A stretch of DNA of 64,000 nucleotides from contig CBDIPJ010000002.1 of NCBI GenBank assembly GCA_965283655.1, positions 148,506 to 212,505 of the forward strand, in the 5' to 3' direction. This document shows, piece by piece, positions 11,401-58,187 of the stretch; within the stretch, counting starts at the first letter, position 1; every line of letters begins with the position of its first letter. The position numbers and the translations under genes were made by a program. Under the pieces are notes generated by a model. That model did no database searches, was not told the DNA's origin, and saw only the letters and a list, made by a program, of their open reading frames with translations. The DNA comes from Limisphaerales bacterium (GTDB taxonomy: Bacteria; Verrucomicrobiota; Verrucomicrobiia; Limisphaerales; UBA9464).

Positions 11401-11788
11401 AGTAGTCCTTCATGCCCTTCTCACCGAGATGCCGACGCATCATCGCGAGCCGGTCCTCCACGGACTTGCACGCCAGATCCTCGTCCAGCCAGTCCATGAT
11501 GCCCCGGATGTCCGGCACGCCGCGCCAGGCCCGGAAGGTCTGGGCCACGAACACACGTCCGTCATCTGCCACGTCGAACGCCACGCCATGCGCCACCTCG
11601 GGCTCCGCGGCGAACAACTGCCCCTTCCACCCCGGCGGCAGTCGGAACCGTTTCAGGTTCTTCTCTCCCTCGTCCGAAGCCGCCGCGATCTTCGGCGACT
11701 CAAACTGCCCCTGCGGCCCCAGTTGATGCTGGGCACGCGCGGCAAGCGCTGCGGTTGCGGCAAGGACGACGGCAAAGCGCCACTTCAT
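8405..11788 (-). CDS. PVC-type heme-binding protein: membrane-bound-dehydrogenase-like beta-propeller, HEAT repeats and a C-terminal CxxCH cytochrome c domain
   Basis: Signal peptide MKWRFAVVLAATAALAARA. N-terminal LFAAEPEVAHGVAFDVADDGRVFVAQ ... DTNGDGRAD ... GHDLHGLNFGPDGKLYFSIGDR, central HEAT-like repeats, and C-terminal CVRCH ... LVEFIASLK. The ATG at 11788 was chosen because the longer ORF (to 12037) runs across the tRNA-Ala gene. Confidence 0.85.
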   Translation of the reverse strand: MKWRFAVVLAATAALAARAQHQLGPQGQFESPKIAAASDEGEKNLKRFRLPPGWKGQLFAAEPEVAHGVAFDVADDGRVFVAQTFRAWRGVPDIRGIMDWLDEDLACKSVEDRLAMMRRHLGEKGMKDYYRNTERIQYLRDTNGDGRADVSQIFAENFATPLDGVAAGVLARGKDVWFANIPNVWHLRDENLDGVADKRRSISYGHGIRVGFLGHDLHGLNFGPDGKLYFSIGDRASVLKTEGRTVGTPDTGAVFRCNPDGTGMEMVYSGLRNPQELVFDEWGNLFTGDNNSDGGDQARWTYLIEGGDSGWRIGWQFLEGADAPMPRGPWNTEKMWQPQNDAQPAYITPPIKNITAGPSGNAYYPGTGMGADWNGTFTLCDFRGSGANSGIWSFQQKPKGASFEIVNDKQFLWSIEATDGTWGPDGAYWVFDWVDGWEGVGKGRLYRFFDPAHIGSDIVKSTQALLAGGFEKRSEKQLLGDLAHPNFRVRQNAQFALAGKGEKVIPSLVKLAKGSSSLHARLHAAWALGQVAEASKATRFGASSPALDALIPLLGDAEPKVRGNIGRILGDARYAKAYDGLVRLTADADAQVRALGCIALGKLARREALPALFQVLRDNDNRDPHLRHAASYAVSLSADVDDLIAAAKDPSEGVRMGVLLAMRRLERSEIAVFLKDASAKVVTEAARAINDVPISGAMPDLAGLIEGGLPEGSQPALVRRVVNANLRFGTAETAKALAAFAAKNSSFEASRAESLVSLAVWPKNGGRDRITGLWRPTASPRDMKLPADALRPVVNGLLADAPNPVRRAAAAAAGSLRIEEAAPVLADLVVGVKADDNVRVAALQALWEMGAAELGAALDAGAKDTSEKVRKAAAKLSVQAPPVARKGAGAGRASGDDKVAKLAAILEKGTLSEKQNAFATLGGVEGAAVDTLLGTWLTQLKAGKVPADLQLDVLDAAAKRPALKEAVASVEAALDPKDPIAKWRVCLTGGNVEEGKKIFLERAEVSCVRCHKANGEGGEVGPELTGLIQKKDRAYLLQSIIQPNAAIAAGFENVLVTLKNDTTYAGVIKSDTDTELEINSPEDGLMKLKKSDIKVREKGLSGMPEGFAEQLTRQDLRNLVEFIASLK

Positions 11789-11944
11789 TCGGTGCGACCA
11801 AGGCATACGGCCGGGCAGGATATGTTCGGTCGCCCGGGTGGCAAGGCACCGATCCATGATTTTGGAACCAAATGCATGTTTCTCAGGAAAAGCCTTTGAC
11901 ACTTCGCCTGCGATTCCTAGAGTGCCGCCCGCTTTCCGGTCGTT

Positions 11945-12020
11945 GGGGTCGTAGCTCAGTTGGTAGAGCACCACAATGGCATTGTGGGGGTCAGGGGTTC
12001 GAATCCCCTCGGCTCCACCA
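11945..12020 (+). tRNA. tRNA-Ala (anticodon GGC), with CCA encoded
   Basis: Hand-folded cloverleaf: acceptor GGGGTCG/CGGCTCC with the G3:U70 alanine identity pair, D arm GCTC-AGTTGGTA-GAGC, anticodon arm CCACA-ATGGCAT-TGTGG (GGC), T arm AGGGG-TTCGAAT-CCCCT, then ACCA. Confidence 0.95.
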
Positions 12021-14711: not shown

Positions 14712-15994
14712 TCACGCCACCGTGATCACCGTGTAGTTCCGTCGCCCCTTGCGCAGCAGCAGCCACTTCCCGAACAGCAGGTCCGCACTCCCGATCACGC
14801 GGCCCACCTCGGTCAAACGCACGTTGTTCAGGTACAGGCCACCACCCTCCAGATCCTTCCGCGCCTGCCCTTTGCTCGGCACCAACCCCGAATGCACGAA
14901 CAGGTCGAGCGCCGAAATCCCACCCGACACCTTCGCCACCTCCAGATCCTTCGTTGGAACCTCACCCACGATCTCGCGGAACGTCGATTCCCCACCCCCG
15001 CCAGATCCCCGCCAAACAGGATCTCCGAAGCCCGCTGCGCCTCGATCGTTGCTTCGGGCCCATGGATCAGGTCTGTCGCCGCCTTCGCGAGCGCCCGATG
15101 CGCCACGCGACCCGATGGATTGGCCGTGTGCTCCGCCTCCAGTGCGGCGATCTCCTCCTGCCCAAGGAACGTGAAGAACTTCAAGTACCGCACCACGTCC
15201 CGGTCGTCCGTCTGGATCCAGAACTGGTAGAACCGGTACACACTGGTCTTCTTCGGATCCAGCCACACCGCCCCGCCTTCGGTCTTCCCGAACTTCGTCC
15301 CGTCCGCCTTCGTGATCAGCGGCAGGGTCAGGCCAAACGCTCCCTTCGAGAGCTTCTTCCGCACCAGGTCGATGCCAGCCGTGATGTTGCCCCACTGGTC
15401 GCTCCCGCCGATCTGCAGCGTGCAGTCATGCGCCGCGCACAGGTGGTAGAAATCAAAGGCCTGAAGGAGCATGTAGCTGAACTCGGTGTAGCTGATGCCG
15501 ACGTCACGGTCCTCCATCCGCGCCCGCACGGATTCCTTCCCGACCATCTGGTTCACCGTGAAGTGCTTTCCGATGTCCCGCAGGAAATCCAGGAAGCTCA
15601 TCGGCGCGGTCCAGTCCGCGTTGTCCACCAGCATCGCCGGATTGCCTGCCCGCTCGAAGTCCAGCAACCGCGCCAACTGCGGCCGCACCGCCAACACGTT
15701 CGCGGCGATCTGGTCCTTCGTCAGCAACTGCCGTTCCGCCGACTTCCCGCTCGGATCGCCGATCGATCCCGTGGCCCCACCCGCCACCGCGATCGGCCGG
15801 TGCCCATCGTCCTGAAACCGACGCAATGCCAGCAAGGGCACCAGATGCCCGACGTGCAGGCTGTCCGCCGTCGGATCAAAGCCGCAGTACAACGTCACCG
15901 GCCCCGACGCCAATCGCGCGCCCAGCTCCGCCGCATCCGTGCAGTCCGCAATCAACCCCCGCCACCGCAGCTCTTCCAGAATCCGTGTCGCCAT
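14712..15994 (-). pseudogene. tyrS: Tyrosine--tRNA ligase, split by a 1-nt frame change near 14990-15000 (as assembled)
   Basis: ORF 14828-15994 carries the HIGH motif (SLHVGHLVPL) and the KMSKS-type KFGKTEGG, then degenerates after ...ASEILFGGDLAGVG. ORF 14712-15395 ends with the S4 domain (STFREIVGEVPTKDLEV ... SKGQARKDLEGGGLYLNNVRL ... LLLRKGRRNYTVITVA). The junction lies at C4/C5 runs at 14990-14999. Confidence 0.9.
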
Positions 15995-16118: not shown

Positions 16119-16373
16119 ATGACGAAAATGCAGATCCGCGTTCCCGAGGAACTCTTTCGTGAGGTCCGAGCCTTTGCCAAACGACGCGAATGGTCCCTCG
16201 CCGAAACTTTCCGGCGAGGTGCTGAATTGCTGCTGCAGGTCTATCCGGAAGCGGATGCCCCGGCGGATACCGCCTGGACACCGCCGACTTCCAGCCGTGT
16301 CGGCTGGAAGGGTCTCACAGCCGAACAACTCCGAGACGCCGCCTTTGCTGATGGGGAACCTCGCCTGCCCTGA
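16119..16373 (+). CDS. Ribbon-helix-helix (CopG/Arc-like) antitoxin-type protein
   Basis: MTKMQIRVPEELFREVRAFAKRREWSLAETFRRGAELLL is a typical RHH N-terminus. It is followed directly by a PIN-domain remnant. Confidence 0.7.
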   Translation: MTKMQIRVPEELFREVRAFAKRREWSLAETFRRGAELLLQVYPEADAPADTAWTPPTSSRVGWKGLTAEQLRDAAFADGEPRLP

Positions 16374-16503
16374 TTCCGATGCTCTGACCCGCACCGCCCT
16401 CGCCTTGCAGGCCTTCGGTGTCACTGATTTCGCCACCGCCAACATCAAGGACTTCGAGGGACTGGGTTTCGCCAAGGTCTGGAATCCGATCGCCAACAAG
16501 TGA
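16374..16503 (+). pseudogene. Remnant of a PIN-domain (VapC-like) toxin; only the C-terminal ~43 codons remain
   Basis: The tail of ORF 16159-16503 reads DSDALTRTALALQAFGVTDFATANIKDFEGLGFAKVWNPIANK, which resembles the last third of VapC toxins (D-A-L-x-A-x-A ... N-x-K-D-F ... NP). There is no start codon and no N-terminal catalytic part. Confidence 0.5.
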
Positions 16504-16507
16504 CCCT

Positions 16508-16650
16508 CCCATCCTGTCCATCCTGTCATCCTGTCCTCTCCTTTCCCCGCAGACAGGATGCACAGGATTTACAGGATGTCCTTCAGCCACCACCTCCACC
16601 GCCACCCATCGCCGCCTCCCGCCCCATCCTGTCCATCCTGTCATCCTGTC
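16508..16650. repeat. Solo (~1.3 unit) copy of the 107-bp repeat family found at 20.5-21.7 kb
   Basis: ccatcctgtccatcctgtcatcctgtc ... gcagacaggatgcacaggatttacaggatgtcc ... (C-rich tract) ... ccatcctgtccatcctgtcatcctgtc. It has the same head, tract and inverted-arm architecture as the array units. Confidence 0.85.
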
Positions 16651-16794
16651 GAGATCTCCTTCGCATCCAGGACCGCGAAGCGCGGTGTGAGGTGGCGACT
16701 CTGGTTATGCTCGTGAAACATCATGTTTTCCGCTCCCCGTCCCGCAGGACGGACTGGGAATGGAAGCCCGGTCGTGCCTAGCGTGGGGGCACTG

Positions 16795-18675
16795 ATGCGA
16801 GTGCGACCTGATGGGAAGAGTTCGGTCTGGCGCCTGGTTGGAAGCGGCGTTGTCGCAGCCTGCTGGATGTTCGCGTCGGCAGGGTGCGCGATTTCCGGGA
16901 ATGGACGCGACGGACTGCCCGCGGAAACGATCTACGTCGGCGGCCAGATCCTGACGATGTCCGGGGACCAACCCGCGTACGCGGAGGCGTTGGCCGTGCG
17001 GGACGGACGGATCCTCCACGTGGGATCCCGGACGTCCGCTATGAAACAGGCCGGCGCACAAACGCGGGTGGTGGACCTGGGCGGGAAGGTCCTGTTGCCC
17101 GGGTTCATCGATGGACACGGACACATCGCGGATTACATCCAGCAGTGGACGCTCCCGGTATTGAATCCGCCGCCCGTCGGCGATGTCACCTCCATCGAGG
17201 ACATCCGCCGCAAGCTCACCGATCACCTGCGCGAGAAACCTCCGGTGCCCGGTCGATTGGTGGTCGCCGTTGGATACGACGACAGCCTGTTGAAGGAACG
17301 CCGGCATCCGACCCGGTTGGACCTCGACGCGGTGAGCCGGGATGTTCCGATCGTCATCCTGCACACGTCGGGTCACCTGCTGGTGGCGAACAGTGCGGCG
17401 CTGAAACTGGCGCGGCTGACCAAGGACACGGAGGACGTTCCGGGTGGCGTGATCCAACGGGATCCGGCGACCGGCGAACCCAATGGCATCATCGAGGAAC
17501 AGGCGGCGTACGCGTTCCTTCCCTACTTCCCGAGGCAATCCCGCGAGGAGCAGGTGCGGATCTTCGCCGAGGTCCAGCAGCTGTGGGCCAGTCACGGGAT
17601 CACGACCGCACAGGACGGCATCGCGAACCCGGACAACGTGAACTTCCTGCGCGAAGAAGCACGCCAGGGGCGACTGAAGCTGGATGTGGTGAGTTACCCG
17701 ATGTGGAAGGTGCTGACGAAGGTCATGCGCGGTGAAGTGGCGTTGGAAGGGGTGGAGGTGTACCCACCGGGATCACAGGTTTCGAATGCCGGCAGGGCGC
17801 GGCCCGGACGAGGCGGCATGGAATCGGTGCCGGTGCCGGGCATGCTGGCGACGAACCGGATCCGGGTGGGTGTGTACGAGAACCACCTGAAGATCGGCGG
17901 GGTGAAGATCACGGGCGACGGATCGCCGCAGGGCAAGACCGCCTTCATGACCCTGCCCTACACACGTCCGCCCGCGGGCTTGCCTCCGGATTACCGGGCG
18001 TACCCTTCGATTGACCCGGCGGAGCTGGATGAATGGGTGGAATGGGGTTACCGGCACGACCTGCAACTGTTGGTCCACTCGAATGGGGATGCCGCCGTCG
18101 AGGCCTTCCTGAATTCGGTCGAGCGGGCGCGGCGAAAGGTGGGCGCCAAGGATCTGAGGCCGGTGGCCATCCATGCCCAATTTGCACGGCACGAACAGGT
18201 GGACCGCATGAAGGCCCTCGGCATCGTTCCCAGCTTCTTCACGGCCCACACGTTCTTCTGGGGCGACACCCACATCGAGACGTTCGGCGCCGAACGCGCC
18301 TTTGGCATCAGTCCACTCGCGCACGCCCACGCGATCGGGCTGAAGTTCTCGAACCACAATGATTCCCCGGTGGTGCCACCCGACATCCTGATGCTGACGT
18401 GGACGGCGGTGAACCGGTTGAGCCGAAGCGGCGTGGTGGTGGGACCCAAGGAACGCGTAAGCCCATACCTCGCATTGAAGTCGGTGACGGACTGGGCGGC
18501 GTACCAGTATCACGAGGAAAACGACAAGGGCACCCTCGCGGTCGGCAAGCTCGCCGATCTGGTCGTCCTCGATCGCAATCCGCTGACGGTCGATCCGATG
18601 CAGATCCGCGACATCCGCGTGCTCGAGACGATCAAGGAAGGGAAGACGATCTATCGCCGGTCCACCGATCGTTGA
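16795..18675 (+). CDS. Amidohydrolase-3 family metal-dependent hydrolase (YtcJ-like), probable lipoprotein
   Basis: Lipobox-like signal MRVRPDGKSSVWRLVGSGVVAACWMFASAGC, then GKVLLPGFIDGHGHIADY (HxH) and HSNGDAAVE, which fits the large amidohydrolase_3 architecture. The ATG at 16795 lies inside ORF 16723-18675. Confidence 0.85.
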   Translation: MRVRPDGKSSVWRLVGSGVVAACWMFASAGCAISGNGRDGLPAETIYVGGQILTMSGDQPAYAEALAVRDGRILHVGSRTSAMKQAGAQTRVVDLGGKVLLPGFIDGHGHIADYIQQWTLPVLNPPPVGDVTSIEDIRRKLTDHLREKPPVPGRLVVAVGYDDSLLKERRHPTRLDLDAVSRDVPIVILHTSGHLLVANSAALKLARLTKDTEDVPGGVIQRDPATGEPNGIIEEQAAYAFLPYFPRQSREEQVRIFAEVQQLWASHGITTAQDGIANPDNVNFLREEARQGRLKLDVVSYPMWKVLTKVMRGEVALEGVEVYPPGSQVSNAGRARPGRGGMESVPVPGMLATNRIRVGVYENHLKIGGVKITGDGSPQGKTAFMTLPYTRPPAGLPPDYRAYPSIDPAELDEWVEWGYRHDLQLLVHSNGDAAVEAFLNSVERARRKVGAKDLRPVAIHAQFARHEQVDRMKALGIVPSFFTAHTFFWGDTHIETFGAERAFGISPLAHAHAIGLKFSNHNDSPVVPPDILMLTWTAVNRLSRSGVVVGPKERVSPYLALKSVTDWAAYQYHEENDKGTLAVGKLADLVVLDRNPLTVDPMQIRDIRVLETIKEGKTIYRRSTDR

Positions 18676-18743
18676 GGAGGGTGGCTGCAGACGAGGGCGT
18701 GGGTTGGCAAGGACCGATCGGGAGTGGAACCGAAGGATACGAA

Positions 18744-20006
18744 ATGAGGAACCGCATGGGATGGAGAATCCGTTGGGCAGCCGCGGGCTTGATGGCGGCC
18801 ACAGGTGCATGGGCCGCGGATGCAGGCGCAACGGTCGGGTGGTGGGATGGCCCAACCTTGACCGGGGATTGGTTCGGGCGGGGATCCGCCCTGAGGGAAG
18901 AGGGTGTTTCGTTGCGGGGTTCGGTGACCCACTTCCTCCAGGGATTGGCCGCGGGAGAGGGCCGTCGGGAATGGGAACTGGGCGGAAAACTCGACGGTTT
19001 TGTGGATGTCGATGCCTCGAAGCTGGGCCTCTGGAACGGATTGTCACTGCACGCCCACGCGGAGCTGAACTATGGGGAGGCACTGGCGTCGCCCGGGGGA
19101 ACCTTCCTGCCAACCAACGTGGGCCTGGGATTTCCAGGATCGGAGTCCGCGAGCGGAGACCTTGCGCTGTTCGTGGCGCAACAGATTCCCGGCGGAGTGC
19201 GGTTGATGGCGGGCAAGATCAACACGGTGGATCTCTACTCCGCCGGAAGGGAGTTCAGCGGTGGCCGCGGCGTGGAGCGCTTTCACCATCTGGAATTCTC
19301 GGCACCGGCCAGCGGCATCACCCCCTCGATGGTCCTGGGCGGGCTGATTTCAGTCACGACGGACCCGGCGAAGTTCACGCTCATGGTCTACGACCCAGAC
19401 AGCAAGATCGGGCAGACGGCGTTGGATCGCCCCTTCGAGAAGGGAACCAGTTTCAACGGCTCCGTCGAACTTGGCGGAACGCTGATGGGCCGGAAGAGCC
19501 GGCACATCTTCTCGGCGGCCTACAGCACGCAGGATGGCGTGGACTTCGACGACATTCCCGAACTTCTACTGCCGCGCTCAACGCCGACAGGAAGCAGGGA
19601 CAATCGCTGGTTCCTGTCGTATGCGGTGGAGCAGACCGTGTGGCGCGATGCATCGGCGCCCGGGCGCGCCTGGGGTGTCTTCGGTCAGGCGGCGATCTCG
19701 GATGCCAATCCGAATCCGATCGGATGGTCCGCGTTGCTGGGAACGGGTGGCACCGGCGTGATCCCGGGACGGGATCGGGACCGGTTGGGTGCGGGCCTGT
19801 TCTGTCTTGGGTTCAGCGAGAGCCTCAAGGATGGGCTGCACACGGTCGGGATCCCGATCCGCAATGAGGCGGGCATGGAGGTCTTCTACAATCTCGCGAT
19901 CACGCAATGGTTGTACCTGACGGGTGACGTGATGGTGATCCGTCCTCCCCAACCGGGAGCAGACCCTGCGGTTCTGGGAGGCATCCGGGCGCAGGTGGTC
20001 TTCTGA
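18744..20006 (+). CDS. Carbohydrate-selective porin, OprB family
   Basis: Signal MRNRMGWRIRWAAAGLMAATGAWA, then the OprB-like LTGDWFGRGSALREEGVSLRGS and a C-terminal beta-barrel ending ...GIRAQVVF. The ATG at 18744 is in frame in ORF 18399-20006. Confidence 0.75.
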   Translation: MRNRMGWRIRWAAAGLMAATGAWAADAGATVGWWDGPTLTGDWFGRGSALREEGVSLRGSVTHFLQGLAAGEGRREWELGGKLDGFVDVDASKLGLWNGLSLHAHAELNYGEALASPGGTFLPTNVGLGFPGSESASGDLALFVAQQIPGGVRLMAGKINTVDLYSAGREFSGGRGVERFHHLEFSAPASGITPSMVLGGLISVTTDPAKFTLMVYDPDSKIGQTALDRPFEKGTSFNGSVELGGTLMGRKSRHIFSAAYSTQDGVDFDDIPELLLPRSTPTGSRDNRWFLSYAVEQTVWRDASAPGRAWGVFGQAAISDANPNPIGWSALLGTGGTGVIPGRDRDRLGAGLFCLGFSESLKDGLHTVGIPIRNEAGMEVFYNLAITQWLYLTGDVMVIRPPQPGADPAVLGGIRAQVVF

Positions 20007-20047
20007 CGAGCTGTGGCGTGGGTGAATGGAAAGGTTCTCCAACCATG

Positions 20048-20149
20048 TCACAGGGTGATCGGATGCAACCCAAAGTGATGGGTGGCGGTGACCATGTGGC
20101 GGTCGCTGCTGTAGATTTCCTTGAGCCCCGCTTCCGCGGCGATTCGGCA
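20048..20149 (-). pseudogene. Possible relic of a second PIN-domain gene (C-terminal ~33 codons)
   Basis: My own minus-strand translation between stops gives CRIAAEAGLKEIYSSDRHMVTATHHFGLHPITL. The A-x-x-x-G-[IL]-K-E-I-Y-S-x-D-R pattern resembles PIN C-termini. There is no start codon. The evidence is weak. Confidence 0.25.
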
Positions 20150-20238
20150 TCAGGTCAAGGACGCCCGGATGCGCCTGGGCTCGTAAAGGAAAGCCGGCGT
20201 CCCAACAAGATCGCGGGATCGCCGGCGCGGATGGACGG

Positions 20239-20367
20239 TTACTTCTTCTTGCCAGGGACCGCCTTCTTGTCAGCGATGGCCTGACTCTTCTTCGCGGCAG
20301 AGGAAGAGGCTGCGGCACTCTTCTGCGAGGATTTCTTCTGGTTGTCCTTCGGTGATCGATCGCCCAT
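20239..20367 (-). CDS. Hypothetical small lysine-rich protein (42 aa)
   Basis: MGDRSPKDNQKKSSQKSAAASSSAAKKSQAIADKKAVPGKKK, the ATG-initiated part of ORF 20239-20559. It is low complexity and has no obvious RBS, so it may not be real. Confidence 0.3.
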   Translation of the reverse strand: MGDRSPKDNQKKSSQKSAAASSSAAKKSQAIADKKAVPGKKK

Positions 20368-20480
20368 GGATTTGAGTAGGTTCGGTGTTGACTGCTGTGC
20401 CCGCGGAATGTCGGTTTCCCCGAGGGCTCCGTACTTTTGCTTCCGCCCGAAGCCGATGTAAACGCTCCGTGTGGCTTTTC

Positions 20481-21663
20481 GGCCCCGCAGACAGGATTCA
20501 CAGGATCTACAGGATGTCCTCCCGACACCCCTTCCCCTCCCCACCTTCTCCCACTTCATTCTGTCATCCTGACATCCTGTCTTCTTCCTCCCCGCAGACA
20601 GGATTCACAGGATTGACAGGATGTCCGCCAGCCACCCCTTCCCCTCCCCACCTTCTCCCACTGCATCCTGTCCTCCTGACATCCTGTCTTCTTCCTCCCC
20701 GCAGACAGGATTCACAGGATTGACAGGATGTCCTCCAACCACCCCTTTCCCTTCCCACCTTCTCCCACTTCATCCTGTCCTCCTGACATCCTGTCTTCTT
20801 CCTCTCCGCAGACAGGATTCACAGGATTGACAGGATGTCCTCCAACCACCCCTTCCCCTCCCCACCTTCTCCCACTTCATCCTGTCCTCCTGACATCCTG
20901 TCTTCTTCCTCCCCGCAGACAGGATTCACAGGATTGACAGGATGTCCTCCAACCACCCCTTTCCCTTCCCACCTTCTCCCACTTCATCCTGTCCTCCTGA
21001 CATCCTGTCTTCTTCCTCTCCGCAGACAGGATTCACAGGATTGACAGGATGTCCTCCAACCACCCCTTCCCCTCCCCACCTTCTCCCACTTCATCCTGTC
21101 CTCCTGACATCCTGTCTTCTTCCTCCCCGCAGACAGGATTCACAGGATTGACAGGATGTCCTCCAACCACCCCTTCCCTTCCCCATCTTCTCCCACTTCA
21201 TCCTGTCCTCCTGACATCCTGTCTTCTTCCTCTCCGCAGACAGGATTCACAGGATTGACAGGATGTCCTCCAACCACCCCTTTCCCTTCCCACCTTCTCC
21301 CACTTCATCCTGTCCTCCTGACATCCTGTCTTCTTCCTCTCCGCAGACAGGATTCACAGGATTGACAGGATGTCCTCCAACCACCCCTTCCCCTCCCCAC
21401 CTTCTCCCACTTCATCCTGTCATCCTGCCATCCTGTCTTCTTCCTCCCCGCAGACAGGATTCACAGGATCTACAGGATGTCCTCCAGCCACCCCTTCCCC
21501 TCCCCACCTTCTCCCACTTCATCCTGTCATCCTGCCATCCTGTCTTCTTCCTCCCCGCAGACAGGATTCACAGGATCTACAGGATGTCCTCCAACCACCC
21601 CTTCCCTTCCCAACCTTCTCCCACTTCATCCTGTCCTCCTGACATCCTGTCCTCCTGTCTTCC
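20481..21663. repeat. Tandem array, 107-bp unit x 11
   Basis: The head motif gcagacagg recurs at 20487 + 107n for n = 0-10. The ORF track shows nine consecutive near-identical ORFs whose starts are spaced exactly 107 bp apart (20621 to 21477). Unit structure: gACAGGATt-cACAGGATt-gACAGGATg, a ~45-nt C/T tract, then catcctgtcctcctgacatcctgtc and cttcttcctcccc. Confidence 0.97.
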
Positions 21664-21683
21664 CCGCCCAGCAATCCCGTCCA

Positions 21684-22433
21684 TCACTCCACCACCACGC
21701 GGAAGTAACCTTCCTGCTGTCCAGCGCCTCCCGTCATTTCCACACACGACCGGCCATTGGCATCCGCGGTCACCACCCGCCAGACGGTCCAGTCCTCGGT
21801 GGCCCATTGCAGCCGGTGCTCGACACGGCAGCGTGCCCCCGGCCGGGTCTTCCAGCACAGCGCGGGTGGGGTACCCGTCACCGCCAACGTTGGCCGCAAG
21901 GGGTGGGGCACCTCGACCACGCCACACACTGGATTGAAGGTCGGGAACGCAAGGTTCGGACTCGCGAGATCATTCCAGAGACCACCGGGATGCCCGTACT
22001 CATTGCCCGTGTTGAGCATGTGCACGAAGTGTTCCCCGCCGGTGACCGGGCTGTTGTCGGGTTGGCCGGGCAACCAATTTGAAAAGCTCCGGGGCGACCC
22101 GTCCGTCCAGAGGAACTGACCTTCCCACTCGGAATCATGAAGCCCGATCCACAGGCTGCGATGGATGCCACCCCATGAACCGAAGGTATCGAAGACCCAC
22201 GCCTGTTCGGCGGCATCATCGATGGTCACGAGATGCCCGCCCAGCGTCACCGCGGCAGCCTCCGACGCGTGCCAGTCGCCCGCGGACAGCAGGAAGTATT
22301 CGTGGTCACTGGCCGGATTCGCGATCGGTCCCGCAACGACCTCGACCTGCGCCTGGGCCGACCCGGCACATACCAGCCCAAGCAGCAGCATCCCGAATAC
22401 GACCACCCCGCGCCCAAGCCGATCCCCAATCAT
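21684..22433 (-). CDS. Secreted C-type lectin domain protein
   Basis: Signal VVVFGMLLLGLVCAGSAQA, then a CTLD: HLVTIDDAAEQAWV ... LWIGLHD ... WTDGSP ... NWLPGQPDN ... GEHFVHM ... GLWNDLA (QPD and WND motifs). The ATG is at 22433. Confidence 0.85.
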   Translation of the reverse strand: MIGDRLGRGVVVFGMLLLGLVCAGSAQAQVEVVAGPIANPASDHEYFLLSAGDWHASEAAAVTLGGHLVTIDDAAEQAWVFDTFGSWGGIHRSLWIGLHDSEWEGQFLWTDGSPRSFSNWLPGQPDNSPVTGGEHFVHMLNTGNEYGHPGGLWNDLASPNLAFPTFNPVCGVVEVPHPLRPTLAVTGTPPALCWKTRPGARCRVEHRLQWATEDWTVWRVVTADANGRSCVEMTGGAGQQEGYFRVVVE

Positions 22434-22496
22434 GGAAGAGCCAACCACGAGCTTCGTTCACCCGCAACATTGCCCCGCTTGTCAGCCCTCCCTTTC

Positions 22497-38297: not shown

Positions 38298-38353
38298 CTT
38301 CTACCTGCCGATCCAAAGCGAGCCAAGCGTCGAGATGACACCCCGTGTGAAGC

Positions 38354-38424
38354 GGGACGGCGATGTTCTCATCGCCTTGGGAAAGGCTTTGGAATGGCGA
38401 CGAGGATGTCGCCACCCCGTTCCG
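38354..38424. repeat. Double-hairpin GC-rich repeat module (ggcgatg...catcgcc plus ggcgacgaggaYgtcgcc)
   Basis: gggacggcgatgttctcatcgcc ... ggaatggcgacgaggatgtcgccaccccgttcc. The same module occurs at about 56087-56155, about 57143-57212 and, inverted, at 58026-58095. Confidence 0.75.
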
Positions 38425-38439
38425 GGAAGGTGATTCCCC

Positions 38440-47745: not shown

Positions 47746-47820
47746 GGAAGGAATTGACCCCGTCAGGCTGCCCAAGATCCTCCCCCTGAGCAAGTCCCCC
47801 GCCCGAACCATATCCAAACC

Positions 47821-48130
47821 GTAGCAGACGACGTCAGGAGGCTGAGGTAGAAGGTCCAAGGTCGAAGCTTCTTCAACCCTCAAGCCCGAGCCCTACTTCA
47901 ATCTTGAAACTGAAATCTTTGGACTCCCCTTCCACTGCCTCGTGACCTCGTCAGCTACCCTCCGCGACGTAGCAGACGACGTCAGGAGGCTGAGGTAGAA
48001 GGTCCAAGGTCCAAGCTTCTTCAACCCTCAAGCCCGAGCCCTACTTCAATCTTGAAACTGAAATCTTTGGACTCCCCTTCCACTGCCTCGTGACCTCGTC
48101 AGCTACCCTCCGCGACGTCAGGAGGCTGTC
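47821..48130. repeat. 148-bp tandem duplication (2 full copies plus a ~14-bp partial third)
   Basis: gtagcagacgacgtcaggaggctgaggtagaaggtccaagg ... cttgaaactgaaatctttggactcc ... cctcgtgacctcgtcagctaccctccgcgac occurs at 47821-47968 and 47969-48116 with only minor differences. acgtcaggaggctg then starts again. Confidence 0.9.
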
Positions 48131-55666: not shown

Positions 55667-55970
55667 GCCGGGCGTTCTGTCCCACGCGAAGCAGGGCTGC
55701 GGCAATTCCCTCCCCTGCGCGGCTTGGCGGCTTTTGAGGATCCGCAGCCTCACCTCCCTTGGCCCCTGCGTTCTGTCTCACGCAAAGACGCCAAGACGCA
55801 AAGCAGGCAAGAACCACCGTGTGGGCGGTCAGGAATCCGAACGTTCCAGTCTGCCCGGCAGCCTTCTCCATAAGCCACGAGCCGTGGCCCCAGGTGCGGA
55901 GCACCGACAGACGATAGCCCAGTGCGTCAGCGCTGGGTTCCATTCCCCAAAAGAAAACCCAGCCCCGGCA

Positions 55971-56168
55971 GGGGCGACAGAGCCCTCCTGTCCGCAAGCC
56001 CACCGACATCCGGCCGTGCCTCCAGCACCTGACAGCACGCAGGAACGACAATCGGAAAAGCCGCGAAGCCACAAAGCCGCCAAGGGGACGGCGATGTCCA
56101 CATCGCGCCGAGAGAGGCTTCGGAACGGCGACGAGGACGTCGCCTCCCCGTTCCGAGCGGGGGCAGTG
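55971..56168 (+). repeat. Left copy of a ~198-bp direct repeat bracketing vapBC
   Basis: ggggcgacagagccctcctgtccgcaagcccaccgacatccggccgtgcctccagcacctgaca ... cggaacggcgacgaggacgtcgcctccccgttccgagcggg. By eye this is close to 95% identical to 57028-57226. Confidence 0.9.
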
Positions 56169-56923: not shown

Positions 56924-57027
56924 GTTACGGATGAATCACTGGCATCCATTCCTGCACTAAAGTCGAAGCTGAAGGCCGAAATCCGCCACTGAATATTTCC
57001 CCACCCGATCCGGGACGCTCTCCCTAA

Positions 57028-57226
57028 GGGGCGACAGAGCCCTCCTGTCCGCAAGCCCACCGACATCCGGCCGTGCCTCCAGCACCTGACAACACGGAGG
57101 AACGACAATCGGAAAAGCCGCGAAGCCTCAAAGCCGCCAAGAGGGGCGGCGATGTCCACATCGCCCTGAGAGAGGCTTCGGAACGGCGACGAGGACGTCG
57201 CCTCCCCGTTCCGAGCGGGTGCAGTG
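57028..57226 (+). repeat. Right copy of the ~198-bp direct repeat bracketing vapBC
   Basis: Aligned by eye with 55971-56168; I see about 8-9 differences including one 1-nt indel. Confidence 0.9.
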
Positions 57227-58025: not shown

Positions 58026-58095
58026 GGAACGGGGAGGCGACGTCCTCGTCGCCACGGCAAAGCCAATCCCAAGGCGATGAGGACATCGCCGCCCC
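58026..58095. repeat. Inverted partial copy of the double-hairpin GC-rich module
   Basis: ggaacggggaggcgacgtcctcgtcgcc ... ggcgatgaggacatcgccgcccc. The first part is the reverse complement of ggcgacgaggacgtcgcctccccgttcc seen at 56.1 and 57.2 kb. Confidence 0.8.
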
Positions 58096-58187
58096 GCGTC
58101 TTTTCATCGTCGGCGCATGTTGGGATGCGAACCGCAAATCCCCGAAACCCCCTTTCCACCCTGCGATTCCCGGCACACCCTCCGCCC

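Follow-up and report, generated by a model that had tools for sequence, protein, structure and literature searches.

An 11-unit array of ACAGGAT hairpins in a Limisphaerales genome is probably a tandem cluster of a REPIN/MITE-like element related to PDDEXK_3 cassettes

The described systems closest to the repeat reported here are the repetitive extragenic palindromic (REP) sequences and their hairpin-forming doublets (REPINs), with the REP-associated tyrosine transposases (RAYTs), and the bacterial interspersed mosaic elements (BIMEs) of Enterobacteria and Pseudomonas. Like the present elements, these are short extragenic hairpin palindromes whose spacer or loop is not conserved; in REP/REPIN-RAYT systems, as here, a small nuclease gene is flanked by inverted repeats, repeat and nuclease types are matched, and tandem clusters occur. 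In P. fluorescens SBW25, tandem REPIN clusters reach up to five, and RAYT genes are flanked by REPINs (PMC3337134). The miniature inverted-repeat transposable elements (MITEs) Correia/NEMIS, ERIC, and RUP offer a second comparison. They resemble the present elements in their size (~70 to 190 bp), in being noncoding, multicopy, and copied whole, in having terminal inverted repeats, and in sharing their ends with a gene-bearing version. We analyzed a 64,000-nucleotide (nt) stretch of DNA (the window) from a Limisphaerales bacterium (contig CBDIPJ010000002.1), in which a tandem array of 107-bp units occupies positions 20483 to 21667. We consider it probable (about 0.7) that this array is a BIME-like tandem cluster of a nonautonomous, REPIN/MITE-like palindromic element, whose family shares its arms with cassettes carrying a gene of the GxxExxY/PDDEXK_3 family.

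The array and its hairpin unit

Tandem Repeats Finder identified one array at 20483-21667 (period, 107; 11.1 copies; 95% matches; 0% indels; score, 2107), and unit alignment and predicted folds agree with this delimitation. Copies of the head motif GCAGACAGG begin at 20487 + 107n (n = 0-10), exactly as stated in the original prediction, which had been made from the sequence alone, and one further copy starts at 16549. ACAGGAT occurs 69 times in the window, compared to an expected 4.7 ± 2.3 (0 of 100 shuffles reached 69). The three-part unit that had been proposed was recovered, with three forward copies of the 7-mer (iterons) at 9-bp spacing, a C/T tract of 41 nt (24 C, 12 T, 5 A, and 0 G), and an inverted arm. 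The arm had been credited with two inverted iterons; it in fact holds three, at 8-bp spacing, of which the middle copy is degenerate (CTCCTGA). In unit 3, for example, the head (AG followed by ACAGGATtc, ACAGGATtg, and ACAGGAT; plus strand) lies at 20703-20729 and recurs every 107 bp from 20491 to 21585. The C/T-rich, G-free loop lies at 20730-20771 (plus strand) and is lineage specific, not being conserved elsewhere in the family described below. The arm (ATCCTGTc, CTCCTGAc, and ATCCTGT, followed by CT; plus strand) lies at 20772-20796 and pairs with the unit 3 head.

Regularly spaced hairpins had been predicted, each formed by the arm of one unit and the head of the next. The spacing is regular, but the favored, minimum-energy fold of a two-unit sequence pairs head and arm within one unit, in helices of 9, 5, and 9 bp, for RNA or DNA and for either strand. 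Fold z-scores for array units were -8.2, -5.1, and -7.0, and the C/T (or G/A) tract formed a loop of ~40 nt that was unpaired in all predicted folds. Because the head and arm of each unit pair with each other, we concluded that each 107-bp unit is one complete hairpin element, AG-(ACAGGATnn)x3, loop, (ATCCTGTn)x3-CT, with a 14-nt linker after it. Two pairs of units are identical, 3 with 5 and 4 with 6, giving an A-B-A-B pattern in which the higher-order repeat is 214 bp; divergence is greatest in units 1, 10, and 11, at the edges. The identical units, together with the divergent edges, therefore point to duplication in place and not to repeated insertion. The earlier suggestion of a recombination-prone satellite fits this pattern, as well as the empty and solo-arm states in relatives described below.

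Several other identities were considered and rejected. A repetitive protein gene is ruled out since the array is interrupted in all six frames. Each plus-strand frame contains 5 to 7 stop codons across the 11 units, and no open stretch is longer than 456 nt; hence, the claim that every unit has stops in all plus-strand frames was overstated, while the conclusion drawn from it, that the array is noncoding, stands. A proline/serine-rich open reading frame (ORF) of 224 amino acids (aa) at 21263-21937 (plus strand) begins in unit 8 and enters the neighboring C-type-lectin gene antisense. It stays open because variant units lose TGA, and it is most likely spurious. A CRISPR (clustered regularly interspaced short palindromic repeats) array is ruled out, as had been argued, by whole 107-bp units that repeat at 95% identity without unique spacers. 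DnaA boxes were rejected because the iterons and TTATCCACA have only ATCC in common. A G-quadruplex or i-motif in the loop was rejected as a family feature: a motif of four C3+ runs is present in the array but missing from a second element at 16508-16650, and loops in the family are unrelated. A comparison of the array with Rfam covariance models gave nothing at an E value of ≤0.1 (best E = 0.47, with all matches far below gathering scores), no promoter-like site was found at the array, and BLASTN of the array against plasmids gave no match. The window gene annotation places no par or rep gene near the array. We place the elements neither with CRISPR arrays or partition sites nor in any Rfam family.

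A hairpin family that shares its arms with PDDEXK_3 cassettes

We scanned 185,579 species-representative genomes with the pattern ACAGGATnnACAGGATnnACAGGAT (21 specified bases; estimated chance matches, <1) and obtained matches in at least 120 genome stretches. The matches listed come from Verrucomicrobiota, Kiritimatiellia, Planctomycetota, Acidobacteriota, Chloroflexota, Gemmatimonadota, Desulfobacterota, Pseudomonadota (including the isolate Thiobaca trueperi DSM 13587), Bacteroidota, Nitrospirota, Chlamydiota, and Armatimonadota, and they include at least 7 archaeal Methanoperedens assemblies. Several genomes have matches on at least 2 to 3 contigs; the source genome has 2 loci within 64 kb. 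The array is not an isolated novelty: a second copy lies 4 kb away, and there are homologous elements in these at least 120 stretches across many phyla.

Two matches were discarded as unrelated coding repeats (a collagen-like GLT repeat in L020 and a DEQ repeat in L017). The remaining matches have a common architecture, ttttAG-(ACAGGATnn)x3, loop, (ATCCTGTnn)x2-3-CTaaaa, in which the flanks TTTTAG and CTAAAA are inverted and hence belong to the palindrome. Every unit of the array, like the 16508-16650 element, fits AG-(ACAGGATnn)x3, loop, inverted (ATCCTGTn[n])x2-3-CT, with arms that pair, and 48 compact elements and the PDDEXK_3 cassettes show this architecture too. Family elements have terminal inverted repeats, a small size, and no ORF. 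Their loops are 15 to 150 nt long, and loop sequences are unrelated between loci. Of 39 compact elements that could be placed, 36 lie outside ORFs, in convergent (12), co-directional (18), or divergent (6) gene contexts. Methanoperedens/Methanosarcinales assemblies (L008, L026, L028, L060, L085, L093, L094, and L108) carry several compact ACAGGAT hairpins with 15- to 21-nt loops, and transfer of the element between domains is therefore implied. Copies within one genome share the loop as well as the arms (two L094 loops are identical, and two Thiobaca loops are near-identical); whole elements, arms and loop, are copied within genomes. Small tandem clusters of 1.9 to 3.3 copies occur at 7 other loci in different phyla (L012, L016, L129, L139, L146, L187, and L197).

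The 7-mers of the family are uninformative on structure because they are invariant; the 2-nt linkers between them vary and were therefore tested. Linker pairs were fully complementary in 23 of 62 cases, compared to 7.4 ± 2.5 in shuffles (maximum, 16 in 2,000). We then aligned 24 complete elements with three iterons in each arm, with loops removed. In this alignment, 90.1% of cells pair, and the covariation score is 0.147 versus 0.071 ± 0.011 for shuffles, none of which (0 of 500) reached the observed score; sliding the partner by 1 to 3 columns reduced pairing to 35 to 42%. The outer linker pair alternates between U-A (10), G-C (8), and C-G (1), and covariation of the arms persists when they are 400 to 530 nt apart. 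Since arms that co-vary are arms that pair, pairing is the reading that we place on the arms of family elements from these sequence comparisons.

At five loci selected by their iterons, the "loop" is a gene of ~125 aa that belongs to PF13366 PDDEXK_3 (E = 1e-40) and TIGR04256 GxxExxY (E = 8e-43); one of these five genes lies 7 kb away from the match that had brought its locus in. Clustering of 1,292 ORFs near the motif yielded no recurrent family except PDDEXK_3, which is likewise the sole recurrent cargo inside iteron brackets. To guard against ascertainment bias, we sampled 80 metagenomic PDDEXK_3 genes by protein similarity and used the 71 that had 135 nt or more of sequence on each side. 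Upstream of 49 of these 71 genes was a forward degenerate iteron pair (ACAnnATnnACAnnAT), downstream of 50 was an inverted pair, and 43 had both, whereas the corresponding frequencies in background windows were 4/1,175 and 5/1,175 (about 0.4%). The usual iteron positions are -31/-22/-13 upstream and about +28/+37/+46 downstream. In a second layout, a complete hairpin lies on each side of the gene (L124, L127, L128, L136, L164, L186, and L187). In the innermost iteron, AGGA lies at Shine-Dalgarno distance from the PDDEXK_3 start codon.

PDDEXK_3 genes without ACAGGAT have the same architecture, built from the variant iterons ACAGAAT/ACAAAAT, ACATAAG, or CACGGAT. The iteron type (ACAGGAT versus ACAGAAT/ACAAAAT) was that of the nearest protein neighbor in 68 of 70 cases, and PDDEXK_3 identity was 65.6% within an iteron type and 57.8% between types, a difference that no permutation matched (0 of 2,000). 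By these comparisons, the iteron variant tracks the PDDEXK_3 protein clade. One role originally offered for the array, that of a protein-binding iteron array, can be retained with modification, in that iterons follow the clade of the PDDEXK_3 nuclease next to them in cassettes; the array itself has no nuclease neighbor.

The GxxExxY/PDDEXK_3 family is very large (7,989 of 8,000 candidates scored significant), and a survey of PD-(D/E)XK proteins lists it as "Unknown, multiple transfers" (PMC3424549). The protein had no match in PADLOC or PHROGs and no relative in PDB by sequence. An AlphaFold model (pLDDT [predicted local distance difference test], 88.9) has an alpha-beta-beta-beta-alpha-beta PD-(D/E)XK core, in which D66, E76, and K78 are invariant. 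The closest solved folds, with template modeling (TM) scores of ~0.5, are Cas4 (SSO0001), the lambda and LHK exonucleases, and the nuclease domains of AdnAB/AddAB. We regard the protein as a predicted nuclease, with no finer assignment.

Some features of the cassettes themselves were recorded. PDDEXK_3 ORFs run into the iterons, giving artefactual TGFTGL N termini and NPVNPV C termini (L004, L084, L113, and many of L121-L200); the database lengths of 134 to 150 aa, compared to a core of ~122 aa, probably reflect this run-on. Cassettes are found inside operons, co-oriented with them (many of L149-L182; L203-L212), and the downstream neighbor is co-oriented with the PDDEXK_3 gene in 38 of 45 cases, with orthologous loci counted separately. 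In many soil contigs the cassette separates a cdsA-like gene from dxr, and cassettes also lie between the genes for the ATPase and the substrate-binding protein of an ABC (ATP-binding cassette) transporter.

The array in related genomes and its surroundings

We used the protein encoded next to the array, a C-type-lectin-domain protein, to find two relatives: L201 (OZ260084.1), whose lectin is 71% identical, and L202 (a contig from ENA), whose lectin is 86% identical. In L201, a conserved motif lies within 12 bp after the lectin stop codon and precedes an ATPase_2/DUF234 gene, and there are no iterons at the site. L202 has one solo arm (gagACAGGATgACAGGATgaACGGGAT) at the lectin junction, ahead of the conserved motif. 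At this junction, the window has the 11-unit array and a 3.7-kb segment and has lost the ATPase_2/DUF234 gene by deletion. Where the window has the second family element, at 16508-16650, L201 has a solo arm. Orthologous sites therefore show four states: empty, a solo arm, one unit, and eleven units. The array is lineage specific, and we concluded that this range of states is the behavior of unstable or selfish repeats and not that of a conserved RNA gene or binding site.

The lectin gene (21684-22448, minus strand; Pfam Lectin_C, E = 1e-8) adjoins the array, as had been noted, with 16 nt between its stop codon and the end of the array. At this distance, a read-through transcript of the gene would include the array as its purine-rich strand. 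Beyond the other end, at a distance of 115 nt, is a candidate lysine-rich small ORF of 42 aa without a family match (20242-20368, minus strand). The second element comprises an arm, 16 nt, a head, a 48-nt C-rich loop, and an arm, with a period of 115; it amounts to 1.2 units, is intergenic, and is ~80% identical to the array units, loop included. Together, the two iteron elements bound the 3.7-kb segment (16742-20482), which contains genes for an amidohydrolase and an OprB porin and the small lysine-rich ORF. This segment is missing from both relatives (compared with L201 10754-11440 and L202 1070-1383), which carry the ATPase_2/DUF234 gene there. The iteron elements are possible markers of a rearrangement hot spot, with the segment gained between two of them. 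Genes in the neighborhood of the array encode the lectin, the porin, the amidohydrolase, a tetratricopeptide repeat protein, and a resistance-nodulation-division pump.

The region also includes tyrS (14712-15994, minus strand), which is present as two overlapping ORFs, with a single T missing near 14990-15000 relative to the intact 427-aa gene of L201; this split is probably an assembly indel error and not a pseudogene. Adjoining the second element, at 16119-16503, are a small ORF of ribbon-helix-helix type (84 aa) and then a fragmented ORF, whose L201 counterpart is an intact 148-aa gene (11511-11957), with ~324 bp of it missing in the window. The pair looks like a decayed toxin-antitoxin pair. 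Elsewhere in the window, an unrelated dispersed repeat of ~75 bp occurs at 38349-38432, 56085-56155, 57139-57221, and 58026-58100 (81 to 87% identity, both orientations). Copies of this repeat are found in the relatives too (L202 130-181 and L201 17450-17518), and the cluster adjoins a match to the Rfam small RNA Acido-Lenti-1 (55892-55937, minus strand). A 200-bp duplicate (55970-56168 versus 57027-57226) is 96% identical, and a 148-bp tandem duplication at 47820-48118 (2.0 copies) is 99% identical.

Possible origins and roles of the array

Despite the likenesses described above, the elements fall outside REP/REPIN-RAYT on two defining features: the associated enzyme belongs to a class other than the HUH-Y1 RAYTs, and the repeat is found well beyond a single lineage. 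RAYTs are of the HUH-Y1 type (like IS200/IS605), whereas the protein here is a PF13366/TIGR04256 PD-(D/E)XK protein. A REP arm is a single imperfect palindrome, whereas the arms here consist of three 9-bp iterons. REPIN-RAYT systems have been described as mostly vertical and lineage restricted, whereas here one iteron sequence is found in more than 10 phyla and in archaea. PDDEXK_3 genes are also multicopy in many genomes; RAYTs are usually single copy. MITEs have a recognized transposase partner, whereas the gene-bearing version here encodes a predicted nuclease of 125 aa and no target-site duplication was identified; tandem amplification to 11 units is also unusual for MITEs. Intervening sequences of 23S rRNA contain an ORF for an S23p/four-helix-bundle protein bracketed by a long inverted repeat. 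They resemble the PDDEXK_3 cassettes in placing a small ORF inside a long-range stem, but the protein family is a different one and none of the PDDEXK_3 cassettes was seen in rRNA. The ToxI RNAs of type III toxin-antitoxin systems are similar in linking tandem short repeats to a small nuclease family. However, ToxI repeats are direct and lie immediately upstream of the toxin gene, whereas here the brackets are inverted and the array has no adjacent nuclease gene. Searches of Rfam 15 and of 8 million searchable papers outside the subscription-only literature turned up no description of the iteron hairpins or of a link between them and GxxExxY genes. A match of the unit to a known MITE end or REP/BIME family had been named as grounds against the original reading; in spirit, such a match was found, although the hairpin family appears uncharacterised.

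As to what the array is, the original prediction had offered a structured or sponge-type RNA. According to this reading, the 11 hairpins, with purine- or pyrimidine-rich loops and dozens of A(C)AGGAU motifs (like the GGA motifs of CsrB, or mimicking Shine-Dalgarno sequences), would titrate an RNA-binding protein or ribosomes. Folding is strong on both strands, read-through is plausible with the lectin stop codon so close, and the innermost iteron of PDDEXK_3 cassettes is placed as a Shine-Dalgarno sequence would be; CAGGAUG in the array also resembles the CsrB repeat. However, the array is missing in relatives whose lectins are 71% and 86% identical, it has neither an Rfam match nor a promoter-like site, its GGA motifs are part of the stems and are not exposed in loops, loop sequences differ across the family, and the element is a symmetric palindrome that occurs in all gene contexts. 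We therefore regard a functional structured or sponge RNA as very improbable. A CsrA sponge as the leading explanation was rejected on the grounds that the motifs lie in stems, that the array is missing in relatives, and that the family has the symmetry of a DNA palindrome. A platform of ~55 iterons in double-stranded DNA, bound by a sequence-specific protein and acting either as a centromere- or origin-like site or as a decoy or landing pad for iteron-specific PDDEXK_3 proteins, would account for the regular spacing of short repeats in direct and inverted orientation. Regular units with direct and inverted repeats are likewise seen in the centromeres and iterons of plasmids (F sopC, with 12 copies of 43 bp; R1 parC; oriV iterons), and the match between iteron type and PDDEXK_3 clade is consistent with recognition of the 7-mer by the protein. 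The present array differs from those plasmid sites in being chromosomal and without partition or replication genes, and family elements are usually single and have linkers that co-vary as in hairpins, which binding to separate 7-mers would not require. No par, rep, or PDDEXK_3 gene lies nearby, plasmids gave no match, and the array is not conserved in relatives; such a platform seems to us quite unlikely.

The hairpins might not be mobile at all. They could be homing or insertion targets of PDDEXK_3 cassettes or remnants left by deletion of such cassettes; the gene would enter the hairpin loop as a homing endonuclease gene does, and the array would be no more than slippage at one such site. 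The commonest cassette layout, which puts the gene exactly in the place of the loop (at -31/-22/-13 and about +28/+37/+46), favors this explanation, and solo arms exist. Gene-less elements are nevertheless duplicated, loop included, at separate loci within a genome, so that some copying of empty elements is needed, and in the second layout the gene lies between two complete hairpins. We consider this explanation unlikely. Finally, the number of copies, although not the existence of the repeat, might be an artefact. The assembly does contain errors, as indicated by the 1-nt deletion that splits the essential tyrS gene relative to L201, and near-identical central units are hard to assemble from short reads. 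Against this, the unit variants are structured, the edges are distinct, there are no indels, the junctions are unique (one is homologous to L202), and related small arrays occur elsewhere. An artefactual copy number is thus another explanation to which we give little weight.

We favor a tandem cluster of a REPIN/MITE-like element for the reasons given, and several observations weigh against it. No PDDEXK_3 gene is present anywhere in the 64-kb window. Comparison of the site in L201, L202, and the window is too divergent for a target-site duplication or a clean presence/absence boundary to be defined. Arm complementarity could partly reflect the way in which arms are generated and not selection for pairing, and the match between iteron type and protein clade can also come from common descent of whole cassettes. 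The fold search with the PDDEXK_3 protein returned only a generic Cas4/lambda-exonuclease-like core, and we know of no nuclease or transposase activity for the family. All occurrences of one exact PDDEXK_3 protein (P0121) represent a single genomic context at the same locus. The 11 copies of the array far exceed the largest other cluster seen (3.3 copies), which leaves room for local selection.

If the array is such a cluster, one element or arm would have expanded locally, through replication slippage or unequal exchange involving units of 107 bp and 214 bp, and the array could shrink again to a solo arm. Hairpins without a gene would be nonautonomous, REPIN- or MITE-like partners of PDDEXK_3 cassettes, recognized in trans at the iterons, probably as hairpin or cruciform DNA. 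That the PDDEXK_3 nuclease mobilizes or recognizes them in this way is a tentative proposal, made by analogy with REPIN/RAYT systems and with MITE-transposase pairs, and we hold it at somewhat less than even odds. An RNA-level role of the long-range stem could also be envisaged because of the Shine-Dalgarno distance of the innermost AGGA from the start codon. The array most likely would have no dedicated cellular function. A probable side effect would be a string of stable hairpins in the 3′-untranslated region of the lectin mRNA, acting as a decay barrier or a block to read-through.

The array alone is of modest interest; the association at the level of the family is the main point. We suggest, again with slightly more doubt than conviction, that ACAGGAT hairpins and GxxExxY/PDDEXK_3 genes constitute an unrecognized class of selfish element that crosses the bacterial-archaeal divide and whose PD-(D/E)XK nuclease, in place of an HUH transposase, recognizes the 9-bp iterons in hairpin or cruciform DNA or in RNA. 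If this is true, the gene-less hairpins would be riders of a 125-aa nuclease, and the 11-unit array would be the largest known cluster and a natural high-copy substrate. In practical terms, gene callers extend ORFs into the repeats, as the NPVNPV tails illustrate, and the repeats may mark sites of rearrangement. The hairpin family accounts for a class of intergenic palindromes in Verrucomicrobiota, Planctomycetota, Acidobacteriota, Chloroflexota, Methanoperedens, and others, and the association with iterons gives the uncharacterized GxxExxY/PDDEXK_3 family a concrete, testable substrate and a plausible selfish or mobile role.

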